In this document: one piece after another, positions 3,701 to 18,148 of the stretch
Layout of the letters: the number at the start of each line of letters is the position of its first letter
Numbering within the stretch: position 1 is the stretch's first letter
From: a virus
Taxonomy: Duplodnaviria; Heunggongvirae; Uroviricota; Caudoviricetes
Virus record (IMG/VR): IMGVR_UViG_2778261226_000007
Strand: one strand, 5' to 3'
DNA: 31,860 bases
Made by a program: the position numbers and the translations under genes
The notes under the pieces: model-generated
The model's database searches: none
What the model was told of the DNA's origin: nothing
What the model saw: only the letters and a program-made list of their open reading frames with translations

Positions 3701-3942
3701 GTAGCAAAAGCCCCGGCAAATGCCCCCGCCATATTCAGTGCCGAAGATTTAGCTGTATTTATCTGATCCGTCACTTCTGCCAGTGCACGCCGCATTTCAC
3801 GGGATGCAGCAGCGGACTGCCGGCCTCCGTTCTGCATGGTACGGTAGTAATCCTGCCCCATACGCGAAGCCCGGGAGATCTCTGACTGGAATGACCGGGA
3901 ATTTGCCGAGATTTTAATAATCAGCTCACGTAATGTCGCCAT
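742..3942 (-). CDS. Tail tape measure protein
   Basis: 1066-aa Ala/Gln-rich coiled-coil protein with central hydrophobic Gly/Ala stretches, located after the G/T chaperones as in lambda H. Confidence 0.9.
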   Translation of the reverse strand: MATLRELIIKISANSRSFQSEISRASRMGQDYYRTMQNGGRQSAAASREMRRALAEVTDQINTAKSSALNMAGAFAGAFATGHLISLADEWNSVNARLKQASQSTDDFQVSQRELMAISQRTGTAFSDNASLFARSAASMREYGYSSEEVLKVTEAISTGLKLSGASAAEASSVITQFSQALAQGVLRGEEFNSVNENGDRVIRALAAGMGVARKDLKAMADNGKLTADKVVPALISQLGALRDEYAAMPDTVSSSATKVENAFMAWVGGANEASGVTKTLSGVLNGIAGNIDTVATAAGALVAVGVARYFGNMASSAGSATAGLITAARNEVALAEAQLRGTQIATARARAAVYRAQQAVAATRGTERQAAAEAKLAAAQASLTRNIAARTAAQTTLNTVTSVGSRLLSGALGLVGGVPGLVMLGATAWYTMYQNQEQARESARQYAATIDEIRQKTSAMSLPEASDNEEKTRQALEEQNRLINEQEGKIRGLKNQIADYQRWLDESSQSGSGAEIILKGLAEATNQLAVEQSRLTQMQGKAQSIQDVLAGLEERRVALIRQQAAEQNKAYQSLLIMNGKHTEFNRLLGLGNELLQQRQGLVNVPLRLPQATLDDKQQTALNNSKRELALSRLKGEARERARLGYAADDLGFVGEAYRTARQNYINNSLDAWRNNQANKPKAHKKTEAEKTEDIYKRLIKQQKEQIALAGQNTELAKMKYQVSQGELSTLSEAQKKTLLQNAALIDQKKIREQLAAYESSLADSNASARASDDAQLLGYGEGSRMRERLQEMWSIRHEFEQKNNELLRQYQAGEIEEALWKQEKELNKKYLEERLSDQQDYYAKADALRNNWNAGLQEGLTNWADSATDYASQAADAVVSTMDGLVSNISDALAGNVVEWRNWGSSVLREVSKILMNAAIVNGLKSLSGAGGWLGTVGGWISGAVANAKGGVYTSANLSAYSNTIVDTPTYFAFAKGAGLMGEAGPEAIMPLTRAADGSLGVRAIGNVNGGGGFVYSPVYHISIQNQGSNGEIDTRSARGLVDLIDSRVVSIMQSSRRDGGLYSA

Positions 3943-6635: not shown

Positions 6636-6970
6636 ACATTCCCCTTCAGGCTGCAGAGTATTTCAAGCCGGGTGGTGCGTGCATCCGGTATTGGTGGCCC
6701 TTCTATACCAAGAATGGCTCCTTTGAATGCACCGGTCAGCACTTTCAGACGTGAAGCTGCCGTCACATCGCGTCGGAATCTCATCCAGACTCTGACCGTA
6801 GCCTGAGCGGTTTCTGCACCTCCTGATATTCTCTCCCTCCCGCTGATACCCTTAACTTCTGCCCATACGGTAGCTCCCTCCGTCACCGTCTCCACCGGAT
6901 GCCCTGACGGAGAGCGGGCGGTGGTGACATTCAGAATAGTTACGCGATCACGTAATCTGCCCGCCTGCAT
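6632..6970 (-). CDS. Head closure / head-tail adaptor protein
   Basis: MQAGRLRDRVTI...VWAEVKGISGRE...TVRVWMRFRRDV matches the head-tail joining family pattern. Gene order supports it. Confidence 0.7.
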   Translation of the reverse strand: MQAGRLRDRVTILNVTTARSPSGHPVETVTEGATVWAEVKGISGRERISGGAETAQATVRVWMRFRRDVTAASRLKVLTGAFKGAILGIEGPPIPDARTTRLEILCSLKGNV

Positions 6971-6978
6971 GGTTCCTC

Positions 6979-7296
6979 CTACAAAGGAATAAAACGATAA
7001 GGCTCCAGCAGAGAAGAAAAACCAAACGGGACTGGTGCCTTGCTGACATCTGAGGAATTTTCCCGGTTTTCGTACCAGTGTCCGACCAGCAACATGAGCG
7101 CCAACAAAACATCATCAGCTATAAGCACCCCTTCAGGATCACCTTCCGGCACCATCTCCTCATAAAGCTTACGGTTGATAAAATTTTCTGCCTTGCGGCA
7201 GGCAGCCCGGAAATACAGCATCAGTAACTCATCATCAGTTGCATCATCTGTATCAATACGGCACTGCGCCCTGAGTTTTTCCACTATTGCTGCCAT
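6979..7296 (-). CDS. Head-tail connector (gp6-like) protein
   Basis: Start at MAAIVEKLRAQCRIDTDD... with CAGGAG 6 nt upstream. Lies immediately downstream of the capsid gene. Confidence 0.6.
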   Translation of the reverse strand: MAAIVEKLRAQCRIDTDDATDDELLMLYFRAACRKAENFINRKLYEEMVPEGDPEGVLIADDVLLALMLLVGHWYENRENSSDVSKAPVPFGFSSLLEPYRFIPL

Positions 7297-13380: not shown

Positions 13381-13441
13381 TGGAATCTCCTTAATACCGG
13401 CATTATCGCAGCCCCTCGCTGAAGGGCTGCTGTAATGCCTG

Positions 13442-13744
13442 TTACTCAGTAACGACTGCGCCTTCCGGTAATTTCATACCTGCAAATACCGGACAACCAG
13501 GATGACGAGCATCTTCTGTTGCTTCCAGCATTGACTCACCAAACCACTCCGTCGTGGCGCGACCATCAGCAGCTTTGTAGTGGAGTAAGTACTGGTTTTC
13601 GCCATCCGCATACTGCGCGCGGGCTTTAACCTCACCCCATTCATCACTGATGCGCATCTCCACCAGTTGAGACAACTCAAACTTAAACGGAACAGCAGCG
13701 GCACCAATTGCAACCGGTTTGTTTTCTGTTTTTTCCATCATCAT
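13442..13744 (-). CDS. Hypothetical protein
   Basis: 100-aa ORF in the operon orientation, preceded by a terminator. No family recognised. Confidence 0.55.
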   Translation of the reverse strand: MMMEKTENKPVAIGAAAVPFKFELSQLVEMRISDEWGEVKARAQYADGENQYLLHYKAADGRATTEWFGESMLEATEDARHPGCPVFAGMKLPEGAVVTE

Positions 13745-13754
13745 CTCCAGATAT

Positions 13755-13778
13755 AAAAAAGCCCCGCATTTGCGGGGC
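13755..13778 (-). terminator. Intrinsic terminator
   Basis: Minus strand: GCCCCGC, loop AAAT, GCGGGGC, followed by T6. Confidence 0.65.
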
Positions 13779-13800
13779 TACAAACAGGCATCACAGCCAG

Positions 13801-14016
13801 TTAGCTAAGTCCGACAGACATAAAATCATCACTACCTAAACGATGGGAACCATAACGAACTTCATACTCCCCATTCAATTCAGAGCGTTTAGACTTTGCG
13901 CCATCCTCCGTTGCATAAATGCCGACCAGATGCCAGGGTTTGTCACGTACTACAGCCCAACCAAGAACCCATCCCTGATTATCAGGATCAGCCTTCAGGT
14001 TATTTTCTACAAACAT
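13801..14016 (-). CDS. Hypothetical protein
   Basis: Start at MFVENNLK with AAGGAG upstream. 71 aa. Confidence 0.5.
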   Translation of the reverse strand: MFVENNLKADPDNQGWVLGWAVVRDKPWHLVGIYATEDGAKSKRSELNGEYEVRYGSHRLGSDDFMSVGLS

Positions 14017-14056
14017 AGTGTTCTCCTTTTGGGTACCCAGAGACATTCTATGTCAT

Positions 14057-14281
14057 TCATGAAACAGGCAACAACGTGGCCGTTACAATCCCCGCCATAT
14101 TTGCGTTCAGATCACATTCAACAGAAATTTCTTCATCCGTGGCATCCACTTCATATGTCCGGGAATAACACTCCGTGCATTTACCACTGAAGATATCCTT
14201 AACCAGAACACGTCCACGCTGCAAAACCCTGAATGGAATCGTTCCGTTAAAGGGCTTTACGGTTACCAGTAATCTCTTCAT
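14057..14281 (-). CDS. Hypothetical protein
   Basis: Start at MKRLLVTVKPF with GGAGGGG upstream. 74 aa. Confidence 0.5.
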   Translation of the reverse strand: MKRLLVTVKPFNGTIPFRVLQRGRVLVKDIFSGKCTECYSRTYEVDATDEEISVECDLNANMAGIVTATLLPVS

Positions 14282-14454
14282 ATCCCCTCCGGATAAAAAT
14301 GCCCCTTGCCGCCCGGGCTGTTGTTCAAAGTTCATCCTGATTCGGCAAGATTCAGAATGTATAAGACAAATTGGCACACACAGCAGAATTTCATGCTTTC
14401 TGGACGCTGGCGCATCCTTCATTTTTCAGCGAAATATTCTGCTCTTACGGGCGA

Positions 14455-14637
14455 TCAGCTCTGCAGACACTGTCGAACACCGTCGACAATTTCGCAGACC
14501 TGAGAAGCCGTATCGAAAAGCTGGCGCGCCTTATCCAGGCTGACGCACCCCACCAATAAAAAAGGCACCAGTATCGCTACCAGTGCCCATTTTGCCGCCG
14601 CTCGCGGCATTCTGTGTGTCCGGTGTTTTCGGCTCAT
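14455..14637 (-). CDS. Small lipoprotein
   Basis: Signal peptide KWALVAILVPFLLVGC with lipobox LVGC and Val at +2. 60 aa. Confidence 0.6.
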   Translation of the reverse strand: MSRKHRTHRMPRAAAKWALVAILVPFLLVGCVSLDKARQLFDTASQVCEIVDGVRQCLQS

Positions 14638-14638
14638 A

Positions 14639-14752
14639 TCACCACCAACGCACAGCCCAAATCAGAACAGCGACCGCCACAAGGCGAATTGCAAAGGCCG
14701 CAGCCCTTGTCAAATCAAGGCTCGCGGGAGTTTCCACTTCAATACCTTTCAT
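14639..14752 (-). CDS. 37-aa membrane peptide (not in ORF track)
   Basis: My translation is MKGIEVETPASLDLTRAAAFAIRLVAVAVLIWAVRWW. GAGG lies 9 nt upstream. The stop abuts the lipoprotein start (TGATATG). Confidence 0.35.
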   Translation of the reverse strand: MKGIEVETPASLDLTRAAAFAIRLVAVAVLIWAVRWW

Positions 14753-14836
14753 AATGGACAACCTCAAAAAGAATCTTTTATACTTTCCCACGAGGATTTT
14801 CTCCGTACTCACTACTCACAATTTCCTCTTTGACGT

Positions 14837-14873
14837 GAAAACTAAAAACCCCGGACTGTTCCAGCAGCTGGGG
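14837..14873 (-). terminator. Intrinsic terminator, bidirectional in shape
   Basis: CCCCAG...CCGGGG stem followed by TTTTTAGTTTT on the minus strand. A T-run also follows on the plus strand. Confidence 0.5.
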
Positions 14874-14884
14874 TTTTGTTTTTT

Positions 14885-15166
14885 TTATTTACTGGTATGA
14901 GTACGGCATTTAGCTATTTCATCCCGGGCTTTACTGTCTCCGCGACAGATACAACGAACCGTGTCACCCGCCAGCGTGGTGATGTAGGCTTCATCCGTTT
15001 TTTCCACCGAAATGCATGGTACATTGCCATCCCGGCAATACTCCACTTGGGCAGCAAGGTGAGTGTTGCGCGGGTAAAATTCCAGGCGATACATATTCCC
15101 CAGAACATGCACTTCTTCAACCTGACGCCCATCTTCCATTACCGTGATTTTTTTCAGTGCGTACAT
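14885..15166 (-). CDS. Hypothetical protein downstream of the endolysin
   Basis: Start at MYALKKITV with GGAGG 6 nt upstream. 93 aa, soluble-looking, with no TM segment or lipobox. Confidence 0.5.
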   Translation of the reverse strand: MYALKKITVMEDGRQVEEVHVLGNMYRLEFYPRNTHLAAQVEYCRDGNVPCISVEKTDEAYITTLAGDTVRCICRGDSKARDEIAKCRTHTSK

Positions 15167-15197
15167 ACGTACCTCCGTTCTTTCGTTTTTTGAGCAA

Positions 15198-15220
15198 TAA
15201 AAAAGCCGCTCATGGCGGCC
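15198..15220 (-). terminator. Weak intrinsic terminator
   Basis: Minus strand: GCCGC, loop CATGA, GCGGC, followed by T6. Confidence 0.45.
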
Positions 15221-15236
15221 CTGTATGTTCTGCAAG

Positions 15237-15620
15237 CTATCGTTTCAACTGAAAGTGAGGCCCATCCTTTAATGACCGCCACTCACCGCCCCATTCGATG
15301 GGGGTATTCAGCTCTTTCGCTGCCTGCTTAAATGCCTGCGCGATTTTCTCGTACAGAGGCCAGTCCCATGACACCTGGCTGCCAACCCAGGCAACAACAT
15401 CCACCGCATCACCGGTCAGGTGGCGGCTGTTCATGGTCTGGCTTTTCCCTTCCGCGACCAGCTGTTTCTGGCGTTCTTTCGTGCGCAGCCCTTCCGTAAT
15501 ACCGAAATCAACCTCCGTCAGCTCCAGCGCACGGCGAACGACAGCAACCAGCTGTGGTTTAACGCCCTCCAGATTCTTTTCGCTGCGACGACTGAATCTG
15601 AATTTACCCGACATATTCAC
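15237..15620 (-). CDS. Endolysin, peptidase M15 (L-alanyl-D-glutamate endopeptidase type)
   Basis: SRHLTGDAVD and DGPHFQL give the His/Asp/His zinc-ligand pattern. Follows the holins. Confidence 0.85.
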   Translation of the reverse strand: MNMSGKFRFSRRSEKNLEGVKPQLVAVVRRALELTEVDFGITEGLRTKERQKQLVAEGKSQTMNSRHLTGDAVDVVAWVGSQVSWDWPLYEKIAQAFKQAAKELNTPIEWGGEWRSLKDGPHFQLKR

Positions 15621-15892
15621 CTCAACAATGGAAAGATTTTTGTGACGTTCCCGCGTGCGCGTATCACCAGCACGCAGAACAGCAGGTTAAAAAACACTTC
15701 CAGCCAGCCCGTTGCTAACGGGCGACCACACAGATAGCTGAGGGGCGCAAAGGCATACAGCAGCATCAGCAACCAGGCCAGCCATGACATCAGCGGTTTA
15801 TGTCTGGAATCACGACGACGATAAAAAAAGAGCGTCAGCACGATAACCGTGCATAACGCCACATTCAGCAATCCGGGAAGGTTACTTAACAT
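15617..15892 (-). CDS. Putative 3-TM holin
   Basis: Start at MLSNLPGLLNV with GGAGGAGG upstream. Has three hydrophobic segments and a basic C-terminus. Overlaps its neighbours. Confidence 0.65.
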   Translation of the reverse strand: MLSNLPGLLNVALCTVIVLTLFFYRRRDSRHKPLMSWLAWLLMLLYAFAPLSYLCGRPLATGWLEVFFNLLFCVLVIRARGNVTKIFPLLR

Positions 15893-16274
15893 TGCCGCCT
15901 CCTCCACCCCGCAGGCGGGAGAACAGGCCGGACACCAGCGATGCAATATCCTGCTGGTGGATGAACGAGAGAATCTTCACCGACACCACGGCCACCAGCA
16001 CCGCACACAGTGCATCCGCCGATGTACCGTCATAACCTGTTTTTGATGCAATCCAGGCTGACAGCACATGCGCACCCAGCACGCCAACGATAAACGACAC
16101 CAGAAAATGCGCCGCCACACGCCAGGCTGAAAGCGCCTGCGGCATCGTTGCCACAAATAACGCCCCAGCGAACGCCCCAAACACAATCCCGAAATCCGTT
16201 CCGGTAAACAGCCCGAATACCGTCGCCCCGCCGAGCGCCGCAGCCGTACCGGAACCGGACAAGGGTTCAGACAT
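15882..16274 (-). CDS. Holin-like / holin-accessory membrane protein
   Basis: Start at MSEPLSGSG with AGGAGA upstream. Gly/Ala-rich TM segments. First gene of the lysis cassette. Confidence 0.55.
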   Translation of the reverse strand: MSEPLSGSGTAAALGGATVFGLFTGTDFGIVFGAFAGALFVATMPQALSAWRVAAHFLVSFIVGVLGAHVLSAWIASKTGYDGTSADALCAVLVAVVSVKILSFIHQQDIASLVSGLFSRLRGGGGGNVK

Positions 16275-16292
16275 ACTTTTTCTCCTGTAAAT

Positions 16293-16316
16293 AAAAAAGG
16301 GCCACTGTCGGCCCGT
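16293..16316 (-). terminator. Intrinsic terminator just upstream of the lysis cassette
   Basis: Minus strand: GGGCC, loop GACAGT, GGCCC, followed by T6. Confidence 0.6.
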
Positions 16317-16404
16317 AAAAAAACAACACCCCGTCAAAGGCACCCGCAGATACCTTTTGTGTGGTGTTATCTGATGTGATGTGCGCCGGACGTGGCGCGG
16401 ATAT

Positions 16405-16429
16405 AAAAAAGGCCCGCCGCAGCGAGCCT
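16405..16429 (-). terminator. Intrinsic terminator after the AraC-family gene
   Basis: Minus strand: AGGCTCGCTGCGGCGGGCC imperfect hairpin followed by T6. Confidence 0.5.
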
Positions 16430-16453
16430 GTTTTCAATGAGTGCAAAATTCAA

Positions 16454-17197
16454 TTATTCTTGAGTAACACTTAAACTCATCTCATTGAATGCAGCCATCC
16501 TGTAACCTGCCGGTGTAACACCAAAATAACTCCTGAATACGCTGATAAAATAAGATGTAAAATTATAGCCACACTGAGCAGCGATTCTGTTGATGGCGCA
16601 ACGAGATTGATTCAACAGCATTGCTGCCATTCTCATTCTCTCTGTAAGCAACAACTCACTGAAACAGGTGCCTTCTTCTTTCAGTCTTTTTTTTAACAAA
16701 CTTTCACTGATACATAACCGCGAAGACACATCTCTCAGAGTCCAGTTTGCTGCAATGTCCGTACGAAACAATGCACTAAGCCTGTCACTAATATTGCCAA
16801 TACACGCGGTCAGAAACGACGAAAACATTTTCTCTGATGAGAAAAACGCCAGACACGAAAAGGAAAGCATTTCCGCTAAATTGTCCGTATGAATCTTTTC
16901 CTCACAAAGATAATCAATCAGGATGCCCATCAATTCTGCCTTGGGAAAACTCACGCAAAGATATCGTGGTATTTGCCGGACTAAAACTACATCCTGTTTT
17001 TCGTCTCCACACAACAGGTAACGGATAATTGTCGATTCACTGAGACTTATTCGCCGAAAACATTCCGAAAAGGGCAATAACGATCCAGCTCCCCCCCTGA
17101 CAAGAAGTGCACTACCACTTTCCAGAGAGAGCTCTTTTCCTTCAAAGAGCACAACAAACGGGGAATGAACAAAAACAACAGAACAAGCTTCATTCAT
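16454..17197 (-). CDS. AraC/XylS-family transcriptional regulator (moron)
   Basis: C-terminal double HTH (WTLRDVSSRLCISESLLKKRLKEEG...INRIAAQCGYNFTSYFISVFRSYFGVTPAGYR). AT-rich relative to its flanks. The first ATG is M21 of the track ORF, whose own start is TTG. Confidence 0.85.
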   Translation of the reverse strand: MNEACSVVFVHSPFVVLFEGKELSLESGSALLVRGGAGSLLPFSECFRRISLSESTIIRYLLCGDEKQDVVLVRQIPRYLCVSFPKAELMGILIDYLCEEKIHTDNLAEMLSFSCLAFFSSEKMFSSFLTACIGNISDRLSALFRTDIAANWTLRDVSSRLCISESLLKKRLKEEGTCFSELLLTERMRMAAMLLNQSRCAINRIAAQCGYNFTSYFISVFRSYFGVTPAGYRMAAFNEMSLSVTQE

Positions 17198-17318
17198 ATC
17201 AATTGCCCTGACATTACTGGTCACAAGATAAGTATATATCGATTTACAAAAATACAAGCCGAAAGACCAGTATTCGCAACCACCAGCGCGTTTAACGTCC
17301 TGTACCGTTTTTCAGGCA

Positions 17319-17345
17319 TAAAAAAACCCGCTCAGTGGCGGGTTT
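17319..17345 (-). terminator. Intrinsic terminator after the ORF6N gene
   Basis: Minus strand: AAACCCGC, loop CACTGA, GCGGGTTT, followed by a T-run. Confidence 0.65.
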
Positions 17346-17420
17346 AAGCTGTTTGGCGTAGTAACCACTCTTAACAGGATATTCAACTTTTTACGATCGT
17401 AAAGCGTTCGGGGAAAATTT

Positions 17421-17909
17421 TTAAAACCGTTCCAGAGTGCATACCATCGCATCGGCGGGTAGTTTTTCCGTGAAGTCGACCTGACCGTGTTTATCGAAGT
17501 GGATCAGTAATGCGCATCCATCATTTTGGGTTGGGGTGTTTTGTGCTGCTGGTGGTTGTTTTTGGCTGAAATAACAGTCTTCCAGTTTTTCGAACACTTC
17601 CCACGCCTGATCGGTTTCCAGCATTTTGGCGTGACGGGCTGCTCCGCGTTCTGTCCAGAGGATGAGGTGCTTTGTACGCGGTGCAACTAAGTTACTTTGA
17701 GTAACCTTGTTCTTAAATTCCCGCAACTCAGCCCCTTCCAATTTGAAGTAGTGTTTCCCACAAACAAAACGCTCGGCATTGCGTGTATAGTTCACTTTGA
17801 TGTTATTAGTTTCGGTGCCATAAAGTTGTGCCAAAAGCTCGGTAGTAATGACAGGGATTTGGTTATGGGTGATCGGGGAAAGAGTTTCAACTGAGATTTG
17901 AATAGCCAT
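17421..17909 (-). CDS. ORF6N-domain (antirepressor/KilA-N-like) protein
   Basis: QIPVITTELLAQLYGT...NYTRNAERFVCGKHYFKLEG...LILWTERGAARHAK is paralogous to the N-terminal half of ORF 24402..25256. Confidence 0.8.
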   Translation of the reverse strand: MAIQISVETLSPITHNQIPVITTELLAQLYGTETNNIKVNYTRNAERFVCGKHYFKLEGAELREFKNKVTQSNLVAPRTKHLILWTERGAARHAKMLETDQAWEVFEKLEDCYFSQKQPPAAQNTPTQNDGCALLIHFDKHGQVDFTEKLPADAMVCTLERF

Positions 17910-17962
17910 AGGATGATCCTTTTTCTATGTGAATCATCACCACTGCTGACGCCAATCAGTAT

Positions 17963-18039
17963 GGTGGTGAACTGTGCAGGGTTGGCGTAACCGGGAAAAA
18001 GGAACCGGCGCGGATCGCTCCGCCCCCACACAGCCCACC
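17963..18039 (-). ncRNA. c4-like antisense RNA core, module C (77 nt)
   Basis: Closing stem GGTGG/CCACC plus CTGTG/CACAG. GNRA hairpin GCGGA-GCGA-TCCGC. A CCGG/CCGG hairpin carries b' (CCTTTTTC, 17995-18002) in its loop. a' is ACGCCAA (17982-17988). Targets: a2 TTGGCGT 17949-17955; b2 GAAAAAGGA 17918-17925 covering the SD of the ATG at 17909. Upstream copies: a1 18111-18117, b1 18096-18103. Confidence 0.7.
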
Positions 18040-18067
18040 ATTGAGATGTGACAGTGCAAACGACAAT

Positions 18068-18088
18068 AAAAAAGACGCTGGCGCGTCT
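18068..18088 (-). terminator. Hairpin plus T6 between b1 and the c4-like core (tR'-like position)
   Basis: Minus strand: AGACGC, loop GCCA, GCGTCT, followed by TTTTT. Confidence 0.6.
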
Positions 18089-18148
18089 GTTGTCGCCTTT
18101 TTCATCCGGGACGCCAATCCCGACGCCAGATTTTGCTGGCGCGTGAGG

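Follow-up and report, generated by a model that had tools for sequence, protein, structure and literature searches.

AraC-like regulators borne on prophages are already established in the subfamily to which PsrA, PsrB, PatE and AppY belong. Acid resistance is raised by PatE and PsrB, both of which activate gadE and hdeAB, and PatE also activates gadBC. PsrA activates gadE and yhiF, PsrA and PsrB both act through GadE and YhiF to repress type III secretion, and AppY of the prophage DLP12 directly activates gadE. More broadly, GadX, GadW, YdeO and AppY all regulate gadE and the AR2 acid-resistance system. In this work we examine a gene of the same subfamily, found in a stretch of 31,860 nucleotides (nt) from a virus of the Caudoviricetes (IMG/VR record IMGVR_UViG_2778261226_000007), which at its full length is referred to here as the window. 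The initial annotation of this DNA had placed an AraC-family regulator, carried as a moron, at the position in which Shiga toxin (Stx) phages hold stx, between the antiterminator gene Q and the lysis genes, and had added that prophage-borne regulators of this type in pathogenic Escherichia coli rewire virulence and acid-resistance regulons, which agrees with the published activities given above.

We regard the identity of the gene, and of the slot that it occupies, as close to certain. It is on balance probable that the gene is moron cargo in the late-leader region of a phiP27-like lambdoid prophage, the product of which would activate acid-resistance promoters of the host. There is nothing conceptually new in a regulator being carried as cargo; what is described here is an uncharacterised and well-conserved addition to the known AraC-like cargo of prophages, in a known kind of position, which is found chiefly in E. 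coli from ruminants, farms and pigs, enterotoxigenic E. coli (ETEC) strains of pigs among them.

Relation to the described regulators

The coding sequence is enclosed by a longer open reading frame (ORF; 16454-17257), and the likely start is the ATG at 17197-17195, from which a protein of 247 amino acids (aa) is read; the same protein is RefSeq WP_001345622.1, annotated in a prophage of E. coli E21845/O/A. Assignment to the AraC/XylS type, as initially proposed, is upheld by Pfam matches to HTH_18 (51.3 bits, cut-off 33.6, residues 178-253 of the long ORF) and HTH_AraC (49.6 bits, cut-off 26.6), and the C-terminal DNA-binding domain comprises approximately 100 aa with two helix-turn-helix motifs. 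A BLASTP comparison with the known prophage-borne regulators, which the initial annotation had suggested, gave identities of 39% to PatE (ECs_0287), 35% to PsrA (ECs_1087) and 30% to AppY, alongside 36% to GadW and 36.5% to YdeO, and the DNA-binding domain of GadX is 45% identical to that of the regulator. The homology to PatE, GadW, YdeO, PsrA and AppY is collinear from residue 1 and extends over residues 1-232 (E values of 1e-36 to 1e-50); this full-length collinearity includes the MxxxCSV N-terminus and the SESLLKKKL recognition helix, and the first recognition helix (SESLLKKRLKEEG) is near-invariant across the subfamily. Residue K169 of the regulator aligns with K170 of AppY, a DNA-binding residue whose mutation abolishes DNA binding (PMC10057817). 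Membership of both the family and the subfamily is, on sequence grounds, shown.

As to its place within the subfamily, the NCBIfam model for YdeO aligns with residues 2-230 at 146.9 bits against an equivalog cut-off of 348, and the model for GadX scores 98.1 bits against a cut-off of 500, such that orthology to a named member is not indicated by either of these two models. Because the score of 147 bits lies so far under the YdeO cut-off, the regulator is best described as a distinct paralogue, and as the orthologue of none of PatE, GadW, YdeO, PsrA, AppY or GadX. An AlphaFold model, built from a shallow alignment of 9 sequences, is confident for the DNA-binding domain alone (predicted local confidence, pLDDT, of 73-96); this domain superposes on the DNA-binding domains of GadX, MarA and AraC, with a template-modelling (TM) score of 0.9 and a root-mean-square deviation of 1.0-1.2 Å against GadX (3mkl). 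The N-terminal region of 134 aa aligns with the N-termini of PatE, YdeO and GadW at 26-31% identity and was modelled with a pLDDT of 31-62.

The described system that most resembles this locus in its position is psrA (ECs_1087) of the Sakai prophage Sp4. Like the protein described here, PsrA is an AraC-like regulator of about 240 aa from the same subfamily, prophage-borne and collinear from residue 1; its gene follows a Q sharing 83% identity with that of the window, and is itself upstream of the ileZ-argN-argO tRNA genes that precede the stx position. A relative 89% identical to PsrA is found between Q and stx2k in phage phiSTEC1575-Stx2k. Since psrA stands behind a close Q in Sp4, the cargo position itself is already known. 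The differences are equally clear: the identity to PsrA is only 35%, so the window protein belongs to a separate paralogous lineage; no effector or pch genes were seen in the annotated relative of the window prophage; and, unlike psrA, the window gene abuts the holin directly, has its own terminator and is accompanied by no tRNA genes. With regard to psrA itself, two reviews place the gene (z1789) in OI-50/CP-933N, but we found no AraC-like gene in that prophage, either in the resequenced EDL933 genome or in Sakai (Sp6). A 2026 paper identifies psrA as ecs1087 in Sp4, and we confirm it there. It is annotated as 195 aa (Sp4 locus L107, 18677-19390); the open frame supports 237 aa beginning with MVVVCSV, a start that matches the conserved N-terminus of the subfamily.

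PatE (Z0321/ECs_0287, prophage CP-933H/Sp1) is the closest characterised relative (E value 7e-50 over residues 1-232), and differs from the window gene in that patE lies at the tail-fibre/integrase end of its prophage, beside a fragment of an insertion sequence. GadW, GadX, YdeO and AppY of K-12 share the domain layout and the recognition helices of the window protein; unlike the window gene, gadX, gadW and ydeO are chromosomal core genes, and appY is at the far end of DLP12. Lambda-like phages such as Lambda_ev203 have a 37% identical homologue between Q and S, and in phage ev099 a homologue (gp29) is at the tail-fibre/integrase end. A further homologue is located beside bof and darB in the P1-like (Punavirus) phage vB_EcoM-Ro157c2YLVW (locus L106, 2577-3299), and another is present in the phage P1 record OP279344, the two P1-type homologues being 31-33% identical; the family is thus also cargo outside the lambdoid phages. 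In a non-phage chromosomal context, a 39% identical homologue (locus L018, 5001-5729) is separated by about 1.1 kb from a gene of the HdeA family (6834-7094), which fits the link of the subfamily to acid-stress genes. The protein belongs to PHROGs family phrog_1450 (189 bits), listed as 'unknown function'. In the literature searched, no mention of WP_001345622 was found, nor any paper joining the AraC family with antiterminator Q, holin and lambdoid prophage.

The cargo interval between Q and the lysis genes

Every gene in the 13-21 kb part of the window is encoded on the minus strand, and the order of transcription begins with a RusA gene and Q, continues through a promoter, an isrK-like terminated RNA and the AraC-type gene, and arrives at the holin, as would be expected of an stx-type position (Table 1). 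The holins, endolysin, HNH and terS region of the window is 91-96% identical at the nucleotide level to the Stx2e phage phiP27, and the lysis cassette (15237-16274) is 91.5% identical to phiP27 L28-L30. In phiP27 the homologous holin, L28, has stx2eA and stx2eB directly upstream of it; the match to the window breaks off at position 16370, between the two terminators downstream of the regulator gene, and the segment shared up to that point sits downstream of stx2e. The Stx2e prophage of E. coli O141:H4 P13-6 is comparable from the other side: its Q is 86% identical and is followed by the same leader terminator, then by a small ORF, a methylase gene, tRNA genes and stx2eAB, and then by the same two holins. 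Strain RM8082 has the same leader element ahead of other cargo. Among these sister phages the interval holds stx2e, a methylase, tRNAs or TerB, and the initial proposal of a slot equivalent to that of stx is therefore borne out, stx2eAB being held between the same leader terminator and holins in phiP27 and P13-6. As judged from these alignments, the regulator gene is shown to sit in a variable cargo interval, delimited on one side by the leader terminator and on the other by the holin-proximal segment.

The window thus resembles the Stx2e phages (phiP27 and others) in its Q family, leader terminator, holin-holin-M15 endolysin order, HNH gene and P27-type terS. It differs from them in that its cargo is a transcription factor, and not a toxin with tRNAs and a methylase (no tRNA genes were found within the window, unlike the late regions of Stx phages), and in that an isrK/C4 and antirepressor module intervenes between Q and the leader terminator. 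In this respect the place initially assigned to the gene, between Q with its promoter PR' and the holin, was right as to order, but the gene is not directly beside Q and PR'.

Table 1. Features of the regulator locus, listed from Q towards the endolysin (window positions)
Feature	Position	Strand	Basis or remark
Q antiterminator gene, 131 aa	18183-18578	minus	Phage_antitermQ PF06530, 175 bits; PHROG 79 'anti-termination protein Q-like'
Sigma-70-like promoter directly after Q stop, candidate PR' (isrK promoter)	18149-18178	minus	TTGACC-18-TATATT, 10/12 matches
c4-a1b1 target element	18103-18155	minus	Rfam, 52 bits
isrK-like short RNA	18068-18142	minus	Rfam RF01394, 79.4 bits (gathering score 50), model 1-77 of 77
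C4-antisense-RNA-like element upstream of antirepressor-like gene	17960-18045	minus	Rfam RF01695, 74 bits (gathering score 45)
ORF6N-domain antirepressor-like gene, 162 aa	17421-17909	minus	Pfam ORF6N, 77 bits; PHROG 2379 'anti-repressor', 263 bits
Late-leader element with intrinsic terminator (stem 17345-17324 and T-run), tR'-type	17255-17350	minus	terminator scan, fold
AraC-specific upstream region	17198-17254	minus	weak -10-like TATACT at 17236-17231, weak Shine-Dalgarno
AraC/XylS-family regulator gene, GadW/YdeO/PatE/Psr subfamily, 247 aa	16454-17197	minus	Pfam, NCBIfam, BLASTP
Poly-G tract G7, codons 34-36 of regulator gene (gene nt 101-107)	17091-17097	minus	length varies among isolates
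Intrinsic (cassette) terminator directly downstream of regulator gene	16410-16429	minus	8-bp stem, 6 GC pairs, T-run
Second intrinsic terminator, about 25 nt upstream of holin start	16299-16314	minus	terminator scan, fold
Holin	15882-16274	minus	PF16931
Second holin	15617-15892	minus	PF05449
M15 endolysin	15237-15620	minus	PF13539

The gene was initially described as bracketed by intrinsic terminators, and these are indeed found: upstream, the stem at 17345-17324 with its T-run (-12.8 kcal/mol, z -2.3), and downstream the stems at 16429-16410 (-17.8 kcal/mol, z -2.6) and 16314-16299 (-10.8 kcal/mol, z -2.6). A scan of 14500-19500 picked up 13 terminator-like sites, where shuffled sequence would give 5.7 +/- 2.1. 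The upstream terminator, which had been attributed to the gene, is present but belongs to a 96-bp leader element (17255-17350, the terminator and some 70 nt beyond it) that phiP27 and 238 complete E. coli genomes have in common; when the gene was searched together with its upstream region, 173 E. coli genomes that lack the regulator gene still matched in this element. The element comes after differing Q genes, about 80 bp after the Q stop codon in loci L004, L006, L015 and L023, and ahead of varied cargo including stx2e. The upstream terminator is accordingly not specific to the AraC-type gene, and the specific part would comprise only about 16371-17254. The first downstream terminator lies 25 nt past the regulator stop codon, in cassette-specific DNA, and is kept in the contexts of close orthologues but diverged in the lineages of 82-86% identity. 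The second is within the holin-proximal conserved segment (up to 16370). In keeping with a moron, then, the gene has its own terminator (the hairpin 16429-16410), its flanks (17255-17350, and up to 16370) are kept in phiP27, P13-6 and RM8082 with other cargo, and its base composition is unlike that of the neighbouring phage genes.

That composition was noted at the outset as richer in AT than the flanks, and the values agree: the G+C content (GC) of the coding sequence is 41.7%, compared with 59.2% for the adjacent holin, 46.7% for Q and 49.1% for the window, and GC at third codon positions is 39.5%, compared with 48-63% in neighbouring genes. The coding sequence is within the lowest 9% of 744-bp segments by GC. 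The most AT-rich places of the window are elsewhere, near 3900 and 27000, where segments of the same length fall to a GC of 36.7%; additional cargo genes may lie at these two spots.

Behind at least four types of Q the protein recurs, unchanged or with one or two substitutions, in the interval ahead of the lysis genes; the types are PF06530 (as in the window), a 273-aa PF03589 protein, a 229-aa 'antitermination protein Q' and DUF1133. Behind at least three of these unrelated Q modules the protein is identical in amino acid sequence, and in the fourth (strain C5) it differs by 2 residues. Homology among the differing Q contexts starts at the leader terminator (window 17342-17347). These comparisons show that the gene evidently moves as a module behind at least four Q types, and the presence of an identical protein behind unrelated Q modules argues for its repeated retention through recombination. 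In a survey of IMG/VR and metagenomes we obtained 50 further loci, two of which were cut by contig ends, leaving 48 assessable for intactness. Q was upstream in 47 of the 48 loci with enough sequence, a PF16931 holin was downstream in 36 of 43, and the orthologues of 82% and 42% identity are again immediately preceded by a Q gene.

The regulator ORF is intact in 46 of the 48 assessable loci, and the possibility that the gene is a degraded remnant in related genomes, raised in the initial annotation, does not hold. Against orthologues of 82% and 86% protein identity, dN/dS is 0.33 and 0.30, respectively (about 0.3; 0.28-0.33). The gene is under purifying selection, and it is intact in nearly all copies. 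It was found in 64 of 5426 complete E. coli genomes. Among these carriers, 41 form a close lineage, recorded for the most part from cattle, farms and sheep meat and in a few cases from humans or other animals, and the remaining 23 form a porcine lineage of about 89% nucleotide identity, mostly in strains named ETEC. A scan of GTDB species representatives gave no close orthologue, only paralogues of the YdeO, GadW, GadX and AppY types from Escherichia, Citrobacter and Salmonella; the gene is strain-specific cargo.

Expression, probable targets and alternative explanations

It is reasonable to postulate that the expression of the regulator is tied to the late promoter of the prophage. The Q of the window is 80-86% identical to DLP12 QuuD, to Sakai Sp4 Q and to the Q of an Stx2e prophage, and the -10 hexamer of the candidate promoter ends 7 nt ahead of the first base of the Rfam isrK match. 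The 3' end of the isrK-like RNA is an intrinsic terminator (stem 18088-18073, -15.1 kcal/mol, z -3.45). On account of its position directly after Q, we infer the promoter at 18149-18178 to be the late promoter, and the isrK-like RNA would be its terminated leader. In Gifsy-1 of Salmonella, the 77-nt IsrK is the terminated product of a promoter just downstream of the Q gene (PMC4825925). The likeness to the antQ-isrK-orf45-anrP region of Gifsy-1 covers the order of Q, promoter, isrK RNA with its terminator, leader element and antirepressor-like gene in the window; it is a likeness of the neighbouring module that excludes the AraC-type gene, and the antirepressor-like gene of the window is flagged as truncated by the Prokaryotic Genome Annotation Pipeline (PGAP).

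In uninduced cells, transcripts from 18178-18149 would end at the isrK terminator, and those that leak past it would end at 17345-17324; the terminators at 16429-16410 and 16314-16299 would in turn stop any transcripts of the regulator from running on into the lysis genes. Since terminators insulate the gene on both sides, expression in the lysogen would have to start in the approximately 125 bp upstream, which hold weak candidates only. This suggests a dependence on an activator or on relief of silencing by H-NS, as for other AT-rich prophage regulators. On induction, Q-modified polymerase from 18178-18149 would cross all four terminators to reach the holin, and since it must do so the regulator would be co-transcribed with the late genes in the manner of stx. 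The architecture therefore leads us to expect a Q-dependent rise in transcription of the regulator. Within the upstream region, the proximal block TTTTTGTAAANCGATATATACTTATCTT retains 94-97% nucleotide identity in orthologues of 82-86% protein identity, in which third codon positions are 83-86% identical; this suggests, but does not prove, constraint on the block.

The regulator protein would be expected to bind AT-rich sites in host promoters, and probably to activate them. As the characterised members of the subfamily converge on the gadE/hdeAB acid-fitness island, this is the most likely target by analogy, a proposal for and against which we find ourselves evenly divided. The effect would be a changed acid resistance and, in hosts positive for the enterocyte effacement locus (LEE), a change in type III secretion as well. 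Were modulation of gadE and acid resistance to be the case, the gene would be another phage route by which gastric survival and colonisation are tuned in livestock-associated E. coli, and the locus would offer a clean natural example of the interchange of toxin and regulator cargo within one late-operon slot.

The poly-G tract within the gene (Table 1) bears on how far its product is needed. Tracts of G5 and G6 result in a frameshift (loci L108-L110, strain C41), and G10 is in frame with one added glycine (strain C5, L114). Changes in the length of this tract are the only lesions in the 'truncated' variants in databases, the genes being otherwise at least 99.5% identical. G7 is present in 49 of the 50 viral and metagenome contigs, and among 41 complete genomes the span of the match agrees with G7 in 37-39 (approximately 86 of 91 overall). 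Slippage of the tract is real but infrequent.

A number of observations weigh against the activation of host acid-resistance promoters by this cargo gene. For a promoter of the gene's own, the initial annotation pointed to 17198-17318: no strong sigma-70 consensus was found there, a consensus scan of 17198-17323 passed no sigma-70 site over threshold upstream of the gene, and the best of the weak candidates (TATACT at 17236-17231) has a poor -35. Only 1.2% of complete E. coli genomes carry the gene, and the frameshifted poly-G variants imply that the regulator is dispensable in at least some lineages. Furthermore, with only 30-39% identity to the characterised relatives, and with the equivalog cut-offs far off, the targets could differ, and the low confidence of the modelled N-terminal domain permits no statement concerning a ligand or its pocket.

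Several of these points are what one would expect of a neutral hitchhiker, silent in the lysogen on account of the terminators, the missing promoter and H-NS, transcribed late as a by-product of read-through, and without an adaptive regulon: no promoter passed the scan, terminators flank the gene on both sides, frameshift alleles of the poly-G tract occur in several isolates, and the gene is present in just 64 of the 5426 complete genomes. A gene of that kind would not, however, be expected to display a dN/dS of about 0.3 over lineages of 82-86% protein identity, to be intact in 46 of 48 loci, to be retained as an identical protein behind at least three unrelated Q modules, or to be preceded by a block conserved above the synonymous level, and we consider this explanation unlikely.

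The poly-G tract may serve as a slipped-strand switch, or it may be no more than a hot spot of mutation. In the former case it is conceivable, if improbable, that the regulator is a switchable, induction-coupled reprogrammer of the host, combining ON/OFF control through G7 with Q-dependent co-transcription with the lysis genes. If so, cells of the induced subpopulation would, just before they lyse, be flooded with their own activator of the acid-stress regulon, and prophage induction would be coupled to a host stress programme, which has not been described for PsrA, PatE or AppY.

We likewise hold it to be rather improbable that the protein is a virulence regulator of the Rns/CsvR/ToxT type, controlling fimbriae or toxins in ETEC or Stx-producing E. 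coli hosts and possibly sensing fatty acids. Rns, CsvR and ToxT do match most of the protein in sequence and in fold, the porcine lineage of 23 host genomes consists mostly of ETEC-named strains, and the strain names SA31 and P393 appear in a paper on E. coli producing the heat-labile enterotoxin of type II (LT-II). PatE, GadW and YdeO are nevertheless far closer (E values of 1e-46 to 1e-50, from residue 1) than Rns (2e-17, from residue 87), many carriers are bovine, farm or environmental, and the model of the N-terminal domain is not good enough for a ligand pocket to be proposed from it. Last, it is hardly to be expected that the protein governs lysis timing, late genes or superinfection functions in place of host regulons, for although the gene lies within the late operon immediately upstream of the holin, would be co-transcribed with the lysis genes and usually accompanies the PF16931 holin, other cargo is found in sister phages that share its leader and holins, so the gene is unneeded for lysis, other genes separate it from the holin in some contexts, and the characterised subfamily members that we reviewed regulate host genes.

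Neighbouring RNA modules and related prophages

The antirepressor-like gene between Q and the leader terminator is identical to one flagged partial by PGAP, with its C-terminus missing. The isrK-like and C4-like elements that precede it form a module that is present in three copies in the window, all on the minus strand (17960-18155, 23280-23468 and 23933-24121; Rfam scores of 58-82 bits). Two of the copies are in tandem in the early region, within the 5' ends of the ORFs 22671-23534 and 23516-24196, for which the PGAP names are Rha-family and ash-family proteins. This triple arrangement resembles the immI region of P1 (c4-icd-ant) and isrK-orf45-anrP of Gifsy-1, and multiple RNA-gated antirepressor modules within a single prophage are unusual.

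A near-identical prophage is integrated in E. coli E21845/O/A (locus L001, 32262-34270) beside mlrA (yehV), a region in which the Stx1 prophage of O157:H7 also has its attachment site. This prophage has a P27-family terS and a head of the HK97 type. It is 98-99% identical to the window except at 13381-15237 and 21905-22457, which are unmatched; these two stretches, one downstream of the endolysin and the other within the replication region, are mosaic replacements.

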